64,000 bases of DNA, taken from contig NZ_JXXK01000003.1 of assembly GCF_000949455.1 (NCBI RefSeq), positions 70,831 to 134,830 on the forward strand, in the 5' to 3' direction. The position numbers and the translations under genes were made by a program. Below, one piece after another: positions 1,779 to 34,949 of the stretch. Within the stretch, counting starts at the first letter, position 1; the number at the start of each line of letters is the position of its first letter. The stretch is from Ruthenibacterium lactatiformans (GTDB lineage Bacteria; Bacillota; Clostridia; Oscillospirales; Ruminococcaceae). Below the pieces are notes generated by a model that ran no database searches, was not told where the DNA came from, and was given only the letters and a program-made list of their open reading frames with translations.

Positions 1779-3253
1779 TGCGCACCAGCGGCATCCTGAT
1801 GCCTGTCTCCTCTCTGCCCTCGCCCTACGGCATCGGCAGCCTGGGGGCGGAAGCCTACCGTTTTGTGGATTTTCTGGCGGCGGCCGGGCAGCGGTACTGG
1901 CAGATCCTGCCCATCGGGCCCACGGGCTACGGCGACAGCCCGTACCAGAGCTTTTCGGCCTTTGCGGCCAACCCCTATTTCATCGACCTCGACGCGCTGG
2001 AGCAGCGCGGCCTGCTGACGCACGACGAGATCGCACGCTTTGATTTCGGCCCTGAAGCGCCCGAAGGCATCGACTACGGCGCCCTGTTCCGCACGCGCTT
2101 TGCCGTGCTGGAGCTGGCCGTGCGCCGCTTTGATGCCGGGGAGGACGCATTCCGCGATTTCTGCGCCGCCAACGCGTTCTGGCTGGACGATTACGCGCTG
2201 TTCATGGCTTTGAAGGCGGAAAACGGCATGCGCGCCTTTTCGCTGTGGCCCAAAGACGTACGCGCGCGCAGACCCGCGGCGCTGGCCGCAGCACGGGCGC
2301 GTCTGGCAGGGCAGGTCCGCTTCTGGCAGGTGGTGCAATACCTGTTTTACGAGCAGTGGGCCGCTCTGAAGGCCTACGCCAACGCAAAGGGCGTGGAGTT
2401 CATCGGTGACATTCCTATCTACGTTTCGCCGGATTCCTCCGACCTCTGGGCCGACCCTTCGCTGTTCCAGGTAGACGCGGACGGCGCGCTGACGGAGGTG
2501 GCGGGCTGCCCGCCGGACGCTTTCGCGGCGGACGGGCAGCTTTGGGGCAACCCGCTGTACAACTGGGATGTACACTTAAAGACCGGGTGCGCCTGGTGGA
2601 TACGACGGCTGCGCCATGCAAGCGCCGTGTACGATGTGGTCCGTATCGACCACTTTCGCGGCTTTGAAAGCTATTACGCCATTCCCGCCCGGGACAAAAC
2701 CGCAGTGAACGGCGTGTGGCGCAAGGGGCCCGGCACGGCGTTCATCGACGTCATACGCCGAAAGCTGCCGGACGTGCGCATCATTGCCGAGGATCTGGGC
2801 TATCTGACGGACGATGTAAAGGCACTGCTGCGCGCCAGCGGCTTTCCCGGTATGAAGGTGCTGCAGTTCGCCTTCGATTCCCGGGAGGAAAGCGACTATC
2901 TGCCCCACAACTACACACAGAATTCTGTTGTGTACACAGGCACCCACGACAACACCACCACGGCGGACTGGGAGCTTTCGGCTCCGGCCGGGGACGTGGC
3001 GTTCGCCAGGCGTTATCTGGATGTGGACGGCGGCGCCGATTTCACGCGGCGTTTTATCCGCGCAGCGCTGGCAAGCGTTTCGGTCACCGCCGTTATTCCC
3101 ATGCCGGACTGGCTGGGCCTTGGCGCCGAGGCGCGCATCAACACGCCCTCCACGCTGGGCGGCAACTGGCTGTGGCGCATGGACCCCGCCGCGCTGACGG
3201 ACGCTTTGGCGGCCGATATTCTGGCTTTGACGAAGCTGTACGGCCGCTGCTGA
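1778..3253 (+). CDS. malQ: 4-alpha-glucanotransferase (amylomaltase, GH77)
   Basis: N-terminal MRTSGILMPVSSLPSPYGIGSLG... and downstream GH77 catalytic motifs; 491 aa typical length. Confidence 0.85.
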   Translation: MRTSGILMPVSSLPSPYGIGSLGAEAYRFVDFLAAAGQRYWQILPIGPTGYGDSPYQSFSAFAANPYFIDLDALEQRGLLTHDEIARFDFGPEAPEGIDYGALFRTRFAVLELAVRRFDAGEDAFRDFCAANAFWLDDYALFMALKAENGMRAFSLWPKDVRARRPAALAAARARLAGQVRFWQVVQYLFYEQWAALKAYANAKGVEFIGDIPIYVSPDSSDLWADPSLFQVDADGALTEVAGCPPDAFAADGQLWGNPLYNWDVHLKTGCAWWIRRLRHASAVYDVVRIDHFRGFESYYAIPARDKTAVNGVWRKGPGTAFIDVIRRKLPDVRIIAEDLGYLTDDVKALLRASGFPGMKVLQFAFDSREESDYLPHNYTQNSVVYTGTHDNTTTADWELSAPAGDVAFARRYLDVDGGADFTRRFIRAALASVSVTAVIPMPDWLGLGAEARINTPSTLGGNWLWRMDPAALTDALAADILALTKLYGRC

Positions 3254-3284
3254 TCCGCACCTTCCCCTTTTCCTTTTTCTTAAA

Positions 3285-3350
3285 ACGAAAGCGCGTCCCG
3301 CACGGCTGAACAGCCGGCTGGGCGCGCTTTCGCTTTGTGTTTTTCTTTTT
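3285..3350 (+). terminator. compound GC-rich hairpin followed by T-rich tract downstream of malQ
   Basis: AAAGCGCG...CAGCCGGCTG...CGCGCTTT then tgtgtttttcttttt. Confidence 0.5.
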
Positions 3351-3423
3351 CCGAATGCCTGTATACTTTTCCCTGTATTAACAGATAATAGTATCATGCA
3401 TCAGAAATTGGGAGGCAGCAATT

Positions 3424-3948
3424 ATGAAAGCAACCGGCATCGTGCGCCGTATCGACGACCTTGGGCGTGTGGTCATCCCCAAGGAAATACGCCGAACCCA
3501 GCTCATCCGCGTGGGCGACCCGCTGGAGATCTTCGTCTCCGGCGCGGGCGAGGTGATCTTCAAGAAATACAGCCCCATCGGGGAACTTTCGGCCTTTGCC
3601 GCAAGCTATGCGGAGGTGCTCTACAAAGCGGCGGGCGCGTCCGTCGCCATTGCGGACCGGGACCGCGTGGTGGCTGCGGCCGGAGCAGCGCGGGACGCCG
3701 TTGAAAGATCTCTCGCTCCCGTTTATACCCGCGCGGTAGAGCAGCGCCGTCTGTTCACGGCGGCGGACGCCGCCAGCGCCCTGCCCCTGTGCGAGGGCGT
3801 GGACACAAGCGCCACAGCCCTGATGCCCATTTTGTGCAACGGAGACCTCATCGGCAGCGTGGCGCTGACGGGCAGCATGCCCGACGAAGCCATGGTGCTG
3901 CTGGTAAAGGTAGCCGCCGCATTTCTGGGCAAGCAGATGGAAGAATAG
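3424..3948 (+). CDS. spoVT: stage V sporulation protein T (AbrB-type DNA-binding domain + GAF domain)
   Basis: MKATGIVRRIDDLGRVVIPKEIRRT...GDPLEIF...KKYSPIGEL is nearly identical to the B. subtilis SpoVT N-terminus; 174 aa; RBS GGGAGG. Confidence 0.85.
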   Translation: MKATGIVRRIDDLGRVVIPKEIRRTQLIRVGDPLEIFVSGAGEVIFKKYSPIGELSAFAASYAEVLYKAAGASVAIADRDRVVAAAGAARDAVERSLAPVYTRAVEQRRLFTAADAASALPLCEGVDTSATALMPILCNGDLIGSVALTGSMPDEAMVLLVKVAAAFLGKQMEE

Positions 3949-28415: not shown

Positions 28416-28464
28416 CGTGACACACCTTTTCTTATAAATGATAGGAACAATAAGACATGGGTTT

Positions 28465-28493
28465 ATTGTACGGCAGGCGGCGCGGTTCGTCAA
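28465..28493 (-). promoter_or_regulatory. candidate glyQS promoter (-35 TTGACG, 17 bp, -10 TACAAT)
   Basis: reverse complement TTGACGaaccgcgccgcctgccgTACAAT; leaves a ~45-nt leader, so no room for a T-box. Confidence 0.45.
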
Positions 28494-28502
28494 GGGTTTG
28501 GC

Positions 28503-28531
28503 TTGACTTCGCGCGCATTGTGTCATATAAT
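28503..28531 (+). promoter_or_regulatory. consensus sigma-A promoter for tRNA-Pro (-35 TTGACT, 17 bp, -10 TATAAT)
   Basis: TTGACTtcgcgcgcattgtgtcaTATAAT, ~75 nt upstream of the tRNA 5' end; divergent from the glyQS promoter. Confidence 0.55.
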
Positions 28532-28607
28532 ATTTTAGCTTGGATTCCTCGTGTAAGCGCCGTATCCGCCGCGCTGGCACGCAGACATCCGTGCCAAAAC
28601 CGCATAC

Positions 28608-28683
28608 CGGGGTGTAGCGCAGTTGGTAGCGCGCCTGCTTTGGGAGCAGGATGCCGGGAGTTCGAGTCTCCCCACTCCGACCA
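28608..28683 (+). tRNA. tRNA-Pro (anticodon TGG)
   Basis: hand-folded cloverleaf: acceptor CGGGGTG/CACTCCG with bacterial-Pro-specific C1:G72, D-arm GCGC/GCGC, anticodon stem CCTGC/GCAGG with loop TTTGGGA, T-arm GGGAG-TTCGAGT-CTCCC, discriminator A, encoded CCA. Confidence 0.85.
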
Positions 28684-28684
28684 A

Positions 28685-28720
28685 AACACCACTAAAATCA
28701 TAGATTTTAGTGGTGTTTTT
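28685..28720 (+). terminator. rho-independent terminator after tRNA-Pro
   Basis: ACACCACTAAAATC-atag-GATTTTAGTGGTGT followed by TTTTTC. Confidence 0.7.
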
Positions 28721-28798
28721 CATAAAAAAGCGCAAAAGCTTTATGGTAAGGTCAAAAAACTTGCGGCGCGCCAAAGCACGATGAAAGGAGACGAACGT

Positions 28799-30040
28799 AT
28801 GGCCTACAGCGAGCTGATCAAAAACTTTGAACGCATTCGGGACTATATGCGCGAATTCTATGTGTACGGTTTTAAAAGCCGCGATGAGTTCACGAAGAAA
28901 AGCGCCCGCTCCTATGATGACGAGCGCCGCCGCGTTGAAAGCTGGCTGGGTGATTATATGCGTTTTCGGCAGACCGCTGACGGCAAAAAGGTCTTTCTCT
29001 CCATCGACAGCCGCATTTCTCATCACAATCCGTTCTACAAGGCATGGAAAGCGAAAAGTTTTACCGATGGGGATATCACGCTTCATTTTCTGATCTTCGA
29101 TGTTTTATCCGGTCCGGATATCGCGCTGCCGCTCAACGGCATCATGGATGAAATTGACCGGCGGCTTTCGTGCTTTGACGAGCCGAAAACATTCGATGCA
29201 TCCACCGTCCGCAAAAAACTGAAGGAATACGCCGAGCAGGGCCTTATCTGTACAGATCGGTCCGCAAAAACATTGCTGTACCGCCGTGCGGCCACGGCTC
29301 AGCCTGCCTGTACAGATGCGCTTGACTTTTTTTCCGAGGTCGCCCCCTGCGGCGTGATCGGTTCTTTTTTGCTGGATAAAGCCGATTCCCATGAGGAACA
29401 CTTTGTGTTCAAGCATCACTATATCACCGGGGCGCTGGACAGTGAGATTTTGTACAGATTGTTTGAGGCGATGCACAGAAAACAGTCCGTCCAAATCGAA
29501 ACCGTCAACCGGCGCAGGGAGCGCACCGCCGCGCAGAAGGTTGTTCCCCTGCGCATTTTTATCAGTGTGCAGAACGGCCGCCAGTATCTGATGGCTTATG
29601 CTCCGCGGAACAAACGGATCGGCTCCATCCGGCTTGATAATATTCTGTCGATCCAGACGGCGGGAAATTGCGAAAGCTACGATACATACCGGCAGAAGCT
29701 TGACCAAATGCAGAAGCATATTTGGGGCGTCAGTACCGAAGGGGGATGCGCGCGGCTGGAGCAGGTGGAGTTTACCGTGCGGTATGATGACGGTGAAGCG
29801 TATATCCACCGCCGTCTGGAACGGGAAAAGCGCTGCGGACAGGTCGAGCGTGTCGACGCTCACACCAGCCGCTTTTCCGCCGACGTCTATGACGCGGGCG
29901 AGCTGGTGCCGTGGATCCGTACCTTTATCTGCCGCATTGTCAGCATTCATTTTTCCAATCAGGAGCTGGCGGCGCAGTTCAAAAGGGACATCGACGCAAT
30001 GGCTCGCTTGTACGGGCTGAACGGAGGCGATGAAGCATGA
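28799..30040 (+). CDS. WYL-domain-containing protein (putative ligand-sensing regulator), island gene 1
   Basis: WYL-like core VVPLRIFISVQNGRQYLMAYAPRNKRIGSIRLDNILSI (xYLxAY...R.FRLDxI pattern); start ATG 28799 with RBS AAAGGAG; lower GC than core genome. Confidence 0.5.
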   Translation: MAYSELIKNFERIRDYMREFYVYGFKSRDEFTKKSARSYDDERRRVESWLGDYMRFRQTADGKKVFLSIDSRISHHNPFYKAWKAKSFTDGDITLHFLIFDVLSGPDIALPLNGIMDEIDRRLSCFDEPKTFDASTVRKKLKEYAEQGLICTDRSAKTLLYRRAATAQPACTDALDFFSEVAPCGVIGSFLLDKADSHEEHFVFKHHYITGALDSEILYRLFEAMHRKQSVQIETVNRRRERTAAQKVVPLRIFISVQNGRQYLMAYAPRNKRIGSIRLDNILSIQTAGNCESYDTYRQKLDQMQKHIWGVSTEGGCARLEQVEFTVRYDDGEAYIHRRLEREKRCGQVERVDAHTSRFSADVYDAGELVPWIRTFICRIVSIHFSNQELAAQFKRDIDAMARLYGLNGGDEA

Positions 30041-30948
30041 TTTTCAGCGAGCTTTACGGCGCTTACTACAACACAGTCGCGGCCGTTCTGCGCAAAGCGG
30101 TTCAGCGCCCGCTCACGAAGGAAGATCTGCGAACGGTTATCGAGCGCTGTGCGTTTTCAGAGAGCGTTTTATCCATCGAACCGGCGCTCACGAGCGAAAA
30201 ATGGCAGCTGCTCCGGCCGGACGGCACAACGCCCCTCCTCCATCCGCCGACCATGCCGCTTACGGTGCTGCAAAAGCGGTGGCTGAAGGCGATTTCTCTT
30301 GACCCGCGCATCCGCCTGTTTGATTTTGACAGTTCCGGCCTTGAGGATGTGCCGCCGCTGTTCACGCCGGACGACATTTACATTTTTGACCGGTATGCGG
30401 ACGGCGACCCATTTGAAGATGAGGTATACATACAAATCTTCCATCGGATACTGGACGCGATCAAAAAGCGGTATCCGCTCAGTATTGATGTAAAAAACCG
30501 CCGGGAGGCCCGCACACATCTGAACGTCATGCCGGAATATCTGGAGTATTCCGAAAAGGACGACAAGTTCCGCCTGGTCGCCTCCGGCTGCCGGTACGGA
30601 AAAACCATCAATCTTGGGCGGATTTTGTCCTGTAAGCCCTTTCGGGGAGAACGGTACGGGCGCCAAAGCATCTGTGCCGCCGCAAACAAACGCGTTGTGA
30701 TCGAGCTGTATGACGGACGCAATGCCCTGGAACGGGTGCTGCTTCACTTTGCGCACTTTGAAAAAGAGGCGCAGCGGCTGGACGAAAAGCACTACCGCGT
30801 CACGATCAACTACCGGCAGGACGACGAGACAGAACTGGTGATTCGGGTGCTTTCTTTCGGCCCGTTTATTAAGGTAACTGAGCCGGAACGCTTTGTGGGA
30901 CTGATCAAAAAACGGCTGGAAATGCAAAAAAGCTGCGGACTCTTTTGA
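30037..30948 (+). CDS. WYL-domain-containing protein with C-terminal WCX-like extension, island gene 2
   Basis: FRLVASGCRYGKTINLGRILSCKPF WYL-like core; C-terminal ...FIKVTEPERFVGLIKKRLE resembles the WYL C-terminal extension; start overlaps upstream stop (ATGA). Confidence 0.5.
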   Translation: MIFSELYGAYYNTVAAVLRKAVQRPLTKEDLRTVIERCAFSESVLSIEPALTSEKWQLLRPDGTTPLLHPPTMPLTVLQKRWLKAISLDPRIRLFDFDSSGLEDVPPLFTPDDIYIFDRYADGDPFEDEVYIQIFHRILDAIKKRYPLSIDVKNRREARTHLNVMPEYLEYSEKDDKFRLVASGCRYGKTINLGRILSCKPFRGERYGRQSICAAANKRVVIELYDGRNALERVLLHFAHFEKEAQRLDEKHYRVTINYRQDDETELVIRVLSFGPFIKVTEPERFVGLIKKRLEMQKSCGLF

Positions 30949-30964
30949 GTTCGCAGCTTTTTTT
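30930..30964 (+). terminator. rho-independent terminator overlapping the stop codon of WYL gene 2
   Basis: AGCTGCGGAC-tcttttga-GTTCGCAGCT followed by TTTTTTT. Confidence 0.55.
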
Positions 30965-31440
30965 CCGTGATAAGGCAGGAAAATTTTAGTATTCTATGGA
31001 TGCAAGATGACCTTTGCGGGTGTTTGAATGTTCTTTCACCGCGGTGCGCGAGGAGGTTCCAAAGCGTATGCCGGTCAGGCTTGCGCGTGGCAGCCGCGAA
31101 AGCGGCGGGGTTCAACTCCCCTTTATATCGCAGGTTCGAATCCTGCCTTACATCCGTCAGGATGTATGCCAGTTGGTTTGGTCGCCGCGGGAAGCGGCAA
31201 GCAGGCGTACCTTCGGGTACGGATGAAAACAGGATTCGTTATCCGGCCAGAAATGCGCAGTGCATCTTTGGATGCAGCAAGCATTGCGGGCAATGCTTAC
31301 CGGGCCCTGTCTGAAAACGGATACCGTGCAAAGGGCCAAACGGCCAGGAAGCAATTCTCCGCCGGTTGGCGCCATGCGCTGAAGGGTTCAGCCGCCGGGC
31401 AGGCATGGATGACGAATCACGAATTTAGACCCGAGGAGGT
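30965..31440 (+). ncRNA. ~480-nt highly structured non-coding leader / candidate ncRNA with two tRNA T-arm-like hairpins
   Basis: no supported ORF; hairpins include GGGG-TTCAACT-CCCC, GCAGG-TTCGAAT-CCTGC (canonical T-arm), GNRA (CCGC-GAAA-GCGG) and UUCG (GTACC-TTCG-GGTAC) tetraloops, AAGCATTGC-ggg-GCAATGCTT, GCTGAA-ggg-TTCAGC; lies immediately upstream of the SPFH-rtcB operon. Confidence 0.35.
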
Positions 31441-31447
31441 TTTTTAT

Positions 31448-32554
31448 ATGAAAAAGGTTATTATCAATGAGAATCAGAAGGGTTTCCTGTTTCATAACGG
31501 ACGGTTTGTAAAGCTTCTGGGCGCAGGAAAGTATCCGTTGTTCGGCGCCCGGGAAATTGAGATCGTCTCTTTGAAGGAGCCTCTCATATCTGCAAAATGC
31601 GAACTGGACACCCTTCTCGCAAACAGCGAGGTCGCAAAACTGACCTCTGTCTGCGAAGTTGCGGACCAGCAGCTGGCGCTTCACTACACAAGCGGAAAAT
31701 TCGACGGAGTGCTCCGCCGCGGCAAATACGCCTTCTGGTCTGTGCTGGAGCGTCACGAGTACCAGCTTGTGGATATCTCCACGCCCGAGGTTGCGGAGGA
31801 TGTGCCGCAGTACATATTCGCAAAGCTTCCCACCACGGTTTATACAAAAGTGGAGGTGGCCCAGTATCAGAAAGCACGGCTGTACTTTGACCAGAAGTTG
31901 ATCCGCATTTTGGACGCCGGCACCTATTACTTCTGGAAAAACAATATCCGGGTAGACGTGAACCTTGTGGACACGCGGCTCACCCGGATGGAGATCACCG
32001 GGCAGGAGATCATGACGCAGGATAAGGTCGGCCTTCGCATCAATTTTGTGTGCAATTACCGCATCACGGATTATGTGAAGATACTCACCGAAATCGACGA
32101 CTATGCCGGGCAAATGCACGTTGCGGCGCAGCTCGCTCTTCGGGACTTTGTAGGGAAGCAGAAGCTGGACGACATTCTGGCGAATAAAGACGAGCTGTCA
32201 AGGTATGCCTTTGAGCGCCTTAAGGCAAAAGAGAACGAGTTCTTCGTGGAAATTATCGACGCGGGCGTGAAGGATATCATTCTTCCCGGCGAGATCCGCG
32301 ACATCATGAATACAGTGCTGATCGCGGAAAAGCGGGCGCAGGCCAACGTCATCACCCGCCGGGAAGAGGTCGCCTCCACCCGCTCGCTGCTCAACACCGC
32401 AAAGCTGATGGAGGAAAACCCGACGCTCTACAGGCTCAAGGAGCTGGAGCACATTGAGCGCATCTGCGAGAATGTGGGCAATATCAACTTAAACGGAAAC
32501 GGAGACGTTCTCTCTCAGCTTATGGGCCTGATGCATCCGGGAACAGCCTCCTGA
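31448..32554 (+). CDS. SPFH/Band-7 (stomatin/prohibitin-like) domain protein without TM anchor, N-terminal domain of unknown function
   Basis: C-terminal half ...IIDAGVKDIILPGEIRDIMNTVLIAEKRAQANVITRREEVASTRSL matches SPFH core; start MKKVIINENQ with RBS GAGGAGG; the ORF track upstream extension (31028-) runs through non-coding structured RNA. Confidence 0.6.
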   Translation: MKKVIINENQKGFLFHNGRFVKLLGAGKYPLFGAREIEIVSLKEPLISAKCELDTLLANSEVAKLTSVCEVADQQLALHYTSGKFDGVLRRGKYAFWSVLERHEYQLVDISTPEVAEDVPQYIFAKLPTTVYTKVEVAQYQKARLYFDQKLIRILDAGTYYFWKNNIRVDVNLVDTRLTRMEITGQEIMTQDKVGLRINFVCNYRITDYVKILTEIDDYAGQMHVAAQLALRDFVGKQKLDDILANKDELSRYAFERLKAKENEFFVEIIDAGVKDIILPGEIRDIMNTVLIAEKRAQANVITRREEVASTRSLLNTAKLMEENPTLYRLKELEHIERICENVGNINLNGNGDVLSQLMGLMHPGTAS

Positions 32555-32616
32555 TATCCGGAGCCGGAGCGGTGAAAGCCGCATGTTCCGGCCCCGTCGG
32601 AAAGGGGATCACCATT

Positions 32617-33819
32617 GTGATCGAAGTAAAGGGAAAATTCAATACCGCGCTGTGCTATACGCCGGCGCTGGACGGAAAAGCAGAGGAGCAGATCCGCCTG
32701 GTCTGCGACGAAGAAGCGTTTCGGGACAGCAAAATCCGCATCATGCCGGACGTTCACGCGGGAAAAGGCTGTACCATCGGAACGACCATGACCATTACGG
32801 ATAAGGTGGTTCCCGGTATGGTGGGTGTGGATATCGGCTGCGGCATGGAAACCGTCAGGATCGCACAACGGGAGATCGATTCTGAAAAGCTGGATGCGCT
32901 GATCCGCAGCGCGATCCCCTGCGGACGGGAAGTGCGCATGGCCTCCCACGAATACTGCTCGTCCATCGACTTGAGCGCGCTTCGCTGCGCGCCTTACGTC
33001 AATCTGGAGCGGGCGAAAAAAAGCATCGGCACGCTGGGCGGCGGCAACCATTTTATCGAGGCGGATCGTTCCGATACGGGCGATATTTATATCGTCGTTC
33101 ATTCCGGCAGCCGCCATCTGGGCGTTGAGGTCGCCGATTACTATCAGGAACAGGGCCGAATGGCATTGTGGGGCGGCGCACGCTACCAGATCGGGCAGCT
33201 CATCGAAACGCTCAAGTCGGAGGGGCGCTTTCAGGAGATCCAGCCCGCAGTAACCGCCCTCAAAAAAGAGCATAAAATCAGCATACCGAAAGACCTGGCC
33301 TATGTGGAGGGCAAGCTTTTCGAGGATTATATCCATGATATGCGCATTGTGCAGCGCTTCGCTGTGTTGAACCGCAAAGCGATGATGGATGTGATCCTTT
33401 CCGGTATGGGCTTTACAAAAGCAGACGAATTCACGACCATTCACAACTATATCGACACGGACGCGATGATCCTGCGCAAAGGCTCGGTTTCTGCCAAGAA
33501 GGGCGAAAAGCTGCTCATTCCCATCAATATGCGGGACGGCAGCCTTATCTGTATCGGAAAAGGAAACCCGGAGTGGAACTGCTCCGCCCCTCATGGGGCC
33601 GGGCGGCTCATGAGCCGGAGAGCGGCGTTTTCCACGCTTTCCATGGAACAGTACCGGGAGGAAATGAAGGGCATTTACTCCACCTGTGTTGTTCCGGATA
33701 CGTTGGATGAATCCCCTATGGCCTATAAGAGCATGGAGGAAATCATTGCGCAGATCGAACCCACGACGCAAATCGCAGAGCGTGTCAAACCTGTTTATAA
33801 CTTTAAGGCGGCAGAATGA
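32617..33819 (+). CDS. rtcB: RtcB-family RNA 3'-phosphate/2',3'-cyclic phosphate ligase
   Basis: RtcB signature motifs MPDVHAGKGCTIG, GVDIGCGM, GGGNHFIE, HNYI, RKGSV, NCSAPHGAGR; GTG start at 32617 (MIEVKGKFNTALCYT, typical RtcB N-terminus) with RBS GGAAAGGGGA. Confidence 0.85.
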   Translation: MIEVKGKFNTALCYTPALDGKAEEQIRLVCDEEAFRDSKIRIMPDVHAGKGCTIGTTMTITDKVVPGMVGVDIGCGMETVRIAQREIDSEKLDALIRSAIPCGREVRMASHEYCSSIDLSALRCAPYVNLERAKKSIGTLGGGNHFIEADRSDTGDIYIVVHSGSRHLGVEVADYYQEQGRMALWGGARYQIGQLIETLKSEGRFQEIQPAVTALKKEHKISIPKDLAYVEGKLFEDYIHDMRIVQRFAVLNRKAMMDVILSGMGFTKADEFTTIHNYIDTDAMILRKGSVSAKKGEKLLIPINMRDGSLICIGKGNPEWNCSAPHGAGRLMSRRAAFSTLSMEQYREEMKGIYSTCVVPDTLDESPMAYKSMEEIIAQIEPTTQIAERVKPVYNFKAAE

Positions 33820-34196: not shown

Positions 34197-34949
34197 ATGA
34201 AAGATACAATACAAAAAGAACTGGCTCAAATTGAACAAACACAAAATGTGCGGATCTTGCTGGCGGTCGAATCCGGCAGCCGGGCATGGGGCTTTGCCTC
34301 TCCGGACAGCGACTATGATGTACGGTTCATCTACGTCCGCCCGAAAGATGCGTATTTGCGGCTTCAAAAACACCGTGATGTGATCGAATTGCCGATCAAC
34401 GACGCGCTGGATATCAACGGGTGGGACCTCACCAAGACGCTGCGGCTTCTGCATAAGTCCAACCCAACGCTGTTTGAATGGGGTGCCTCCCCCATTGTAT
34501 ATTTAGAAACAGATTTTGCGGCACGGTTTAAATCTGTTATGGGGCGATATTTTTCTTCGAAGAGAGGGCTGTATCACTATATCCATATGGCGGCCGGCAA
34601 CTACCGCGAATACATCAAAGGCGATATGATAAAGGCAAAGAAATATTTTTATGTCCTGCGCCCGGTCCTCGCCTGCCGGTGGATCCTTGACAAAGGCTCC
34701 CCGCCGCCCATGCTGTTTTCCGAACTGATGGAGAGCGGGCTTGCACCGGAATTGAAACCGGAAGTCGAGCGTCTGCTCGAACTCAAGGTGAATTCCCCTG
34801 AAATCAGGATGATTCCGCAGATCAGGACGCTCAACGAATATCTCAGTTCCAGCATAGCGGAAATCGAACAAAAAATCGCGCGTCCTCCCAATGAGCGGGA
34901 AATCGGCTGGGAAGAGCTGAACGAACTGTTCCTGTCGCAGCTTATATAG
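34197..34949 (+). CDS. Pol-beta-superfamily nucleotidyltransferase (PF10127-like predicted nucleotidyltransferase)
   Basis: LLAVESGSRAWGFASPDSDYDVRFIYV = GS-x(n)-DxD minimal nucleotidyltransferase motif; RBS AAAGGAGGAG. Confidence 0.65.
   Translation: MKDTIQKELAQIEQTQNVRILLAVESGSRAWGFASPDSDYDVRFIYVRPKDAYLRLQKHRDVIELPINDALDINGWDLTKTLRLLHKSNPTLFEWGASPIVYLETDFAARFKSVMGRYFSSKRGLYHYIHMAAGNYREYIKGDMIKAKKYFYVLRPVLACRWILDKGSPPPMLFSELMESGLAPELKPEVERLLELKVNSPEIRMIPQIRTLNEYLSSSIAEIEQKIARPPNEREIGWEELNELFLSQLI

Follow-up and report, generated by a model that had tools for sequence, protein, structure and literature searches.

What kind of sequence separates a pair of WYL-type regulator genes from the slipin gene and the RNA-repair genes that follow them in Ruthenibacterium lactatiformans? 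In the window (the whole stretch of DNA analysed, 64 kb in length), a gap of 483 nt (30965-31447) lies between a WYL/WCX gene, with its stop codon at 30948, and the ATG of a slipin gene at 31448. The initial annotation of this DNA had described the region upstream of the SPFH-rtcB genes as non-coding and dense in hairpins, had drawn attention to two elements resembling the T-arm of tRNA, and had considered a Y RNA-like or tRNA-mimicking RNA, a sensor or decoy, or a long regulatory leader. The description of the gap is borne out by its folding energy, by the lack of Pfam matches in its reading frames and by comparison with related loci: it is non-coding and strongly structured, and corresponds to one conserved RNA on the + strand.

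The gene cluster around the gap

To judge from their sequences, the genes that flank the gap make up an RNA-repair cluster. Upstream are two overlapping WYL-type regulator genes (28457-30948, + strand), the first with a Pfam WYL domain and the second with a weak WCX match. The longest open reading frame for the first of these (28457-30040) encloses a tRNA-Pro gene (28608-28683), and its real start is probably near 28790, since the matches of its relatives begin at about residue 115. An inverted repeat followed by a U-tract (30927-30964, + strand) terminates the WYL/WCX gene, the stop codon of which falls within the loop. This terminator-like repeat and the adjoining TTTTTTTCCGTGA (together 30927-30975) are almost invariant in 41 related loci, being conserved beyond the RNA itself, and in a distant subfamily a differently spelled palindrome, AAGTTTGCAA..TTGCAAACTT, stands at the same place. 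We infer only that the inverted repeat could be an operator of the WYL pair, overlapping a -35 region. The alignment points to a weak promoter-like pair, GTGATA-17 nt-TATTCT (30967-30995, + strand), at whose -10 position the relatives carry TGGTAAAAT; a scan of the region for consensus promoters and terminators called no promoter, and called only T-arm 1 (see below), as a false terminator.

Downstream, a ribosome-binding site (GAGGAGG, 31433-31439, + strand) precedes the gene for a stomatin-like slipin of the SPFH/Band-7 type (31448-32554, + strand; Pfam PF01145, 3.6e-25). No transmembrane segment was predicted in this protein (hydropathy maximum 1.15), and its relatives in the PDB are stomatins, which form 16-mer rings. 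Its residues 1-130 (31448-31840) have no PDB or Pfam match; a G[KT]Y.(F)(W) strand motif occurs in them three times, where stomatin would have its membrane hairpin, and they are a candidate RNA-binding or oligomerisation module. Several database entries for slipins (P0002, P0019 and P0051) run to 449-638 aa, compared with about 368, and for some of these long entries the start may have been called too far upstream, within the RNA, as with the window open reading frame 31028-32554. The slipin gene is followed by genes for the RNA ligase RtcB (32572-33819, + strand; Pfam PF01139, 8e-60, and NCBIfam; start at GTG 32572 or near 32617) and the nucleotidyltransferase RlaP (34197-34949, + strand; Pfam PF10127, 1e-92). 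In two related loci genuine tRNA genes are found some 0.4-0.5 kb past the slipin stop codon (Asp and Pro at 5533-5716 in L055; Pro at 5464-5539 in L029), and if the window tRNA-Pro gene upstream of the WYL genes is counted with them, a loose association of the gene cluster with tRNA genes is possible.

An RNA of three conserved parts

Could the gap be coding after all? The two open reading frames tested in it (30967-31314 and 31028-31447) gave no Pfam match and its conservation takes the form of paired-base compensation, by which a protein-coding reading is ruled out. Folding energies set against those of shuffled sequences gave z = -4.0 for the + strand and -3.4 for the - strand. ARAGORN found no tRNA gene in the gap, and Rfam 15 yielded no family match there, either at the gathering threshold or at E <= 10. 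The sole Rfam signal in the gap, with the models that had been suggested as a check (YrlA, tRNA and T-box) included, was a T-arm fragment to which the tRNA model RF00005 gave 14.5 bits, its gathering score being 29.

A protein-guided scan, taking one genome per species, provided 80 related loci with slipin identities of 42-87%, a range which indicates that the alignments are not artefacts of recent horizontal copies. The loci are mostly from Clostridia, and also include Paenibacillus, Treponema, a Spirochaetes metagenome-assembled genome (MAG) and a Lentisphaerae MAG; no relatives were found in viral contigs. In almost all 80 the gap before slipin is 450-700 nt long. Comparative folding of these regions, also proposed earlier as a check, revealed strong covariation in each of three parts, which are laid out on the + strand as a 5' element, a central permuted tRNA-like module and a 127-nt 3' domain. 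All three are present upstream of slipin in about 65-70 of the 80 related genomes; counted by source, they are single-copy and in constant order on the + strand in 67-69 of 81. The core of the RNA, 5' element through 3' domain, occupies 379 nt in the window (31034-31412) and 275-492 nt in relatives. A full-length MAFFT and alifold alignment, made with 41 loci, had too many gaps in its central part to be of use, and the modules there (T-arm, acceptor-like stem and D-arm, in the order T-AS-D) were located by a hairpin scan.

The conserved 5' element (31034-31082, + strand) runs from GCGGUGC through a hairpin, H2 (31044-31069), to GUAUGCCGG, with GUAUGCC trailing H2. Model R3 scored 52 bits at this element of the window and found one match per locus at 67 loci. 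Covariation in H2 is marked (95.9% paired, where shuffled sequences gave 78.8% and slid controls no more than 68%), and the hairpin holds two invariant or near-invariant G-U pairs; as these would read as C-A mismatches on the other strand, the + strand is the one transcribed. Another hairpin, H1 (GCGGGTG/CACCGC, 31016-31042, + strand), was given by RNAalifold on 16 sequences, its pairs mostly invariant and showing little covariation. H2 also includes a GAGGAGG heptamer (31050-31056) identical to the slipin ribosome-binding site at 31433-31439, and GAGGA is kept in H2 across the window-type subfamily.

Between the 5' element and the central module are two further hairpins. T-arm 1 (GGGG-UUCAACU-CCCC, 31107-31121, + strand) is abutted, in the position of a variable arm, by a V-like hairpin (GCCGC-GAAA-GCGGC, 31093-31106, + strand) that has equivalents of differing sequence in the relatives. 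The two T-arm-like elements noted at the outset do exist, and they alone match GGTTCRANTCC in the 64 kb (two matches, with 0.19 expected by chance), but only the second belongs to a full module: T-arm 1 stands isolated, without an acceptor hairpin or D-arm. It is missing from several relatives, while others retain an acceptor-like hairpin downstream of it, and from its sequence it may be read as a reduced tRNA-like module.

The full module (31130-31184, + strand) consists of T-arm 2 (31130-31146), a self-complementary, loop-closed acceptor-like hairpin (UACAUCC-GUCA-GGAUGUA, 31149-31166) and a D-arm with GG in its loop (GCCA-GUUGGUU-UGGU, 31168-31182), all on the + strand, a succession that supports the earlier suggestion of a Y RNA-like or tRNA-mimicking RNA. 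In tRNA, the GG of the D-loop pairs with the T-loop. Model R2, built from distant loci only (window-type sequences being left out), matched the complete module at 31130-31184 with 19.3 bits and E = 0.039 over 1.29 Mb, and scored genuine tRNAs below it. Even so, the window module is a degenerate one, with only 19 bits, one linker nucleotide in place of U8-N9, and no A14. Covariation in the module reaches 88.5% paired; the shuffled controls gave 61%, and the slid ones no more than 48%. The related loci contain about 100 T-arms, and with few exceptions each is succeeded by a 5-9 bp hairpin of unrelated sequence and then by a D-arm, which in many loci has the canonical form UAGCUCAGCGGUAGAGCA. The acceptor hairpins of these modules (again about 100) are highly variable in sequence and always self-complementary, and a relative may have from one to four modules in tandem. 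A GGTTCGAATCC motif is found about 300 nt upstream of the slipin start codon in almost all 80 loci, and none of these motifs was called as a normal tRNA, save for one odd call in L012; elements of 63 nt in L055 and L061 do score 36-40 bits with the Rfam tRNA model. Beside the T-loop and the D-loop GG, GGAUACCG is to be named among the loops of the RNA. By analogy, the module should reproduce the elbow of tRNA, as YrlA does. A long-range helix between GCCR (following H2) and the D-loop GG, proposed by RNAalifold on 16 sequences, was rejected because the compensatory changes (CCA/UGG, CCG/CGG, CCCG/UGGG) back the local D-arm hairpin.

The module is succeeded by a variable region of local hairpins (31184-31285, + strand), including a conserved GNRA/UUCG-capped one at 31184-31198. 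Within this region CCGGC (31243-31247) is a possible partner of UGCCGG (31069-31074), and cases of compensatory change were seen in L025, L035, L002 and L016. The duplex energies were no better than those with shuffled targets (mean z = -0.15; p <= 0.05 in 4 of 61 loci), so a helix closing the central domain is unproven and without statistical support.

The 3' domain (31286-31412, + strand), 127 nt long, forms a long irregular hairpin with the conserved loops gccYUGY, gGAUACCG, CUnAA and CCgc. Model R1 scored 97 bits here in the window and had one match each in 69 of 81 sources. Its pairing stands at 87.7% (53.5% for shuffled sequences and 44% at best for slid controls), and both sides have changed in 34 of 35 pairs. 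Compared by eye with the consensus of the kink-turn, loop E, T-loop and 11-nt tetraloop receptor, its loops fitted none of them. The domain ends 35 nt before the slipin ATG in the window, and 25-60 nt before it in most loci; neither the alignment nor a terminator scan gave any intrinsic terminator between the RNA and the slipin gene.

How do these conserved helices compare with the short perfect hairpins listed in the initial annotation? Every one of the latter was located in the sequence: CCGC-GAAA-GCGG (31094-31105), GCCGC-gggaa-GCGGC (31184-31198), GTACC-TTCG-GGTAC (31207-31220), ATGC-gcagt-GCAT (31253-31265), GCATC-tttg-GATGC (31262-31275), AAGCATTGC/GCAATGCTT (31279-31298, in which the arms are 2 nt apart rather than separated by the spacer of 3 nt that had been claimed), GGCC-aaac-GGCC (31334-31345) and GCTGAA-ggg-TTCAGC (31378-31392). 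Several, however, have no place in the conserved fold. Those at 31279-31298, 31334-31345 and 31378-31392 conflict with long-range helices of the 3' domain that are backed by covariation, and for this reason they are alternative or incidental pairings inside that domain.

With which gene is the RNA associated? RtcB was detected in 40 of the 80 related loci, many of which are on incomplete contigs. The question could also be approached from the side of the RNA, by scanning metagenome contigs for an exact pattern of conserved 3'-domain positions only. This gave 56 loci, 52 of them with at least 250 nt of downstream sequence, and in 50 of these 52 a slipin gene lies downstream on the same strand. 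Its start is less than 400 nt from the pattern in 41 of the 52, and at about +693 nt in nine more (L119, at 2860-3548, L084, L086, L093, L094, L095, L115, L126 and L131), in which the shift is due to an extra open reading frame inserted after the 3' domain (roughly 200 aa, or ~640 nt, with no obvious relation to other genes). Wherever the sequence suffices, the 5' element and the tRNA-like module are found upstream of the matched 3' domain in these metagenomic loci. In nine loci a distant RtcB gene (28-31% identical to that of the window) is located upstream on the same strand (L047, L053, L058, L061, L067, L068, L071, L074 and L075), which places the RNA between rtcB and slipin rather than at the head of the cluster; the WYL pair is divergent in L047, L053, L058, L061, L068 and L075, and no WYL match was found in L067, L071 or L074. 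The RNA thus tracks slipin, not rtcB.

Resemblance to YrlA, b7a-tRNA and other RNAs

The order of arms in the central module invites comparison with YrlA (RF02553), in which the arms of tRNA are circularly permuted in the order T-AS-D (Chen et al., 2014; Wang et al., 2018). YrlA is bound by Rsr, is modified by TruB and DusA, and is encoded on the same strand as the Ro60/Rsr gene, at a distance of about 4 kb or less. The window RNA has the same permuted T-arm, acceptor and D-arm (31130-31184), preceded by the V-like hairpin at 31093-31106, and thus shares with YrlA a V-T-AS-D order, as well as the T-loop GGUUCGAAUCC, GG in the D-loop, and the setting of an RtcB-type repair operon. In the relative L076, the Rfam model of YrlA spans the whole module (T-arm, acceptor hairpin and D-arm) with 37.4 bits, below its gathering score of 69; on the window it gave no match even at E <= 10. 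The putative Ro60 contact motif GNCGAAN0-1G is absent from 30965-31447, and was found, at any position in the RNA, in 12 of 61 relatives; nor did the genes on either side of the RNA (the WYL-type pair, slipin, RtcB and RlaP) show a TROVE (Ro60/Rsr) domain. From the sub-threshold scores, the absence of the motif and the lack of a TROVE gene in the cluster, it follows that the window RNA is not a member of the YrlA family, from which it also differs in being three to four times longer, in possessing extra 5' and 3' domains, and in having relatives with one to four tandem modules.

[quoted passage not shown] The window RNA fits the tRNA-like class of b7a-tRNA, the match being to this second-hand description: it adjoins a Band-7/SPFH gene, RtcB is encoded in the same cluster, and its sequence and structure are tRNA-like. 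Both are predicted non-coding, tRNA-like RNAs next to Band-7/SPFH and RtcB genes, and both have been proposed as a counterpart, for Band-7 proteins, of the Y RNA that accompanies Ro60. The two descriptions diverge in that b7a-tRNA is said to resemble authentic tRNA strongly, whereas the tRNA-like part of the window RNA is permuted, and in that the latter is about 380 nt long with two further conserved domains, b7a-tRNA being compared by description only.

Other comparisons are more remote. No cloverleaf, anticodon arm or two-ended acceptor stem of a true tRNA was found, in keeping with the ARAGORN and Rfam results for the gap. T-boxes are likewise long structured RNAs ahead of a gene and related to the shape of tRNA, but they bind tRNA rather than imitate it and end in a terminator/antiterminator; in the gap there was no Rfam match to a T-box, and no conserved terminator was found before the gene. 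The vault particle combines MVP, with its SPFH-like shoulder domain, the TROVE protein TEP1 and a vault RNA. The likeness here (a ring- or cage-forming SPFH-type protein with a small structured RNA) is one of analogy only, as the RNAs are unrelated in sequence or structure, and the window system is bacterial and tied to an RNA ligase.

Possible roles in RNA repair

What might such an RNA do? On balance, and with some reserve, we favour the view that it is the partner of a soluble slipin/RtcB/RlaP repair complex, a single structured RNA of ~380-450 nt belonging to the b7a-tRNA class. It would be transcribed from a promoter just past the WYL-gene terminator, continuous with the slipin-rtcB-rlaP mRNA, and would probably be released from the 5' end of the operon transcript, or be active while still attached. 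By analogy with Ro60 and Y RNA, it would serve as a dedicated partner of the soluble ring-forming slipin, and its tRNA-shaped surfaces would gather RtcB, RlaP or damaged substrates of tRNA type within a single repair particle. A scaffold role of this kind is favoured by the variable number of modules, and by the way in which the RNA stays beside slipin when rtcB moves. The 3' domain could be a binding site for slipin or the ligase, or a receptor for tRNA elbows. More tentatively, and with rather more doubt than conviction, we can imagine that the b7a element is only the centre of a larger, uncatalogued class of RNA, with a core of 275-490 nt, in which the 5' junction element and a 3' domain of ~125 nt clamp one to four elbow modules; such an RNA would be the RNA subunit of a bacterial particle, analogous to Ro-Y RNA or the vault, in which a soluble ring of the stomatin type organises repair by RtcB/RlaP.

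A cis-acting leader would account for the spacing of 25-60 nt, the lack of a terminator and the position of the RNA immediately before slipin, on its strand, no less well than a free RNA would. Such a leader would respond to a signal (for instance tRNA that is damaged or nicked, fragments of tRNA, or a protein that binds tRNA) and would control the translation or stability of the slipin-rtcB mRNA, without any role as a free RNA, and there is a precedent in the regulation of other rtc operons by tRNA damage (PMC7790460). We nevertheless regard this as rather unlikely, as the alignments contain no conserved terminator/antiterminator or pairing that would sequester the ribosome-binding site, and Rfam gave neither a T-box nor a riboswitch match. 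From one to four modules fit a multivalent scaffold better than a switch, several loci have the RNA internal to the cluster (rtcB-RNA-slipin) or an open reading frame of ~640 nt before slipin, and YrlA, the closest curated relative, works as a ribonucleoprotein cofactor. Might the modules instead act as decoys or competitive inhibitors, soaking up tRNA-targeting toxins, nucleases or other tRNA-binding enzymes during attack by phages or toxins? They mimic the T-loop/D-loop elbow and the acceptor-T stack, they occur in an operon of the conflict or repair type (RtcB, RlaP and WYL regulators), and something comparable has been suggested in the case of YrlA (PMC7790460). This seems to us distinctly improbable, though: the modules lack the anticodon arm and free acceptor ends that are the usual targets of tRNA toxins, and a decoy leaves unexplained why the 5' element and the 3' domain are conserved to the same degree, and why the RNA is strictly linked to slipin and not to rtcB.

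Least credible of all is the notion that the region has no RNA function and comprises decayed tRNA remnants or chance hairpins in a GC-rich spacer. It might seem to gain from the short T-arm matches (14.5 bits), which are all that the tRNA model finds, and from the weakness of the window module with R2. Against it stand the three-part architecture common to Clostridia, Paenibacillus, Treponema and a Lentisphaerae genome, hundreds of compensatory changes, and the permuted order, which a tRNA gene could not acquire merely by decaying. By the covariation, tRNA decay is excluded, as is protein coding.

To return to the favoured reading of the RNA as a partner of the slipin/RtcB/RlaP complex, what would it add? 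An RNA of this sort was predicted in 2016, and what is new may be a matter of scale: a 5' element and a 127-nt 3' domain, conserved like the tRNA-like part, that are not in Rfam. Covariance models of the three parts could seed an Rfam family, and would keep gene callers from stretching slipin open reading frames into the RNA. Among the organisms that carry the RNA, Oscillibacter valericigenes Sjm18-20 (locus L018) is in culture and has a complete genome. To our knowledge, the repair targets of bacterial RtcB and the means by which it finds its substrates are largely open questions, and Ro60/Y RNA is the only RNA-guided partner to have been studied so far. The interest of the present RNA would rise if it proved to be a subunit of a slipin-RtcB particle: slipin with a multi-domain, tRNA-mimicking RNA would then be a second widespread RNA-protein pair, and a tractable one in which to study tRNA mimicry in RNA repair.
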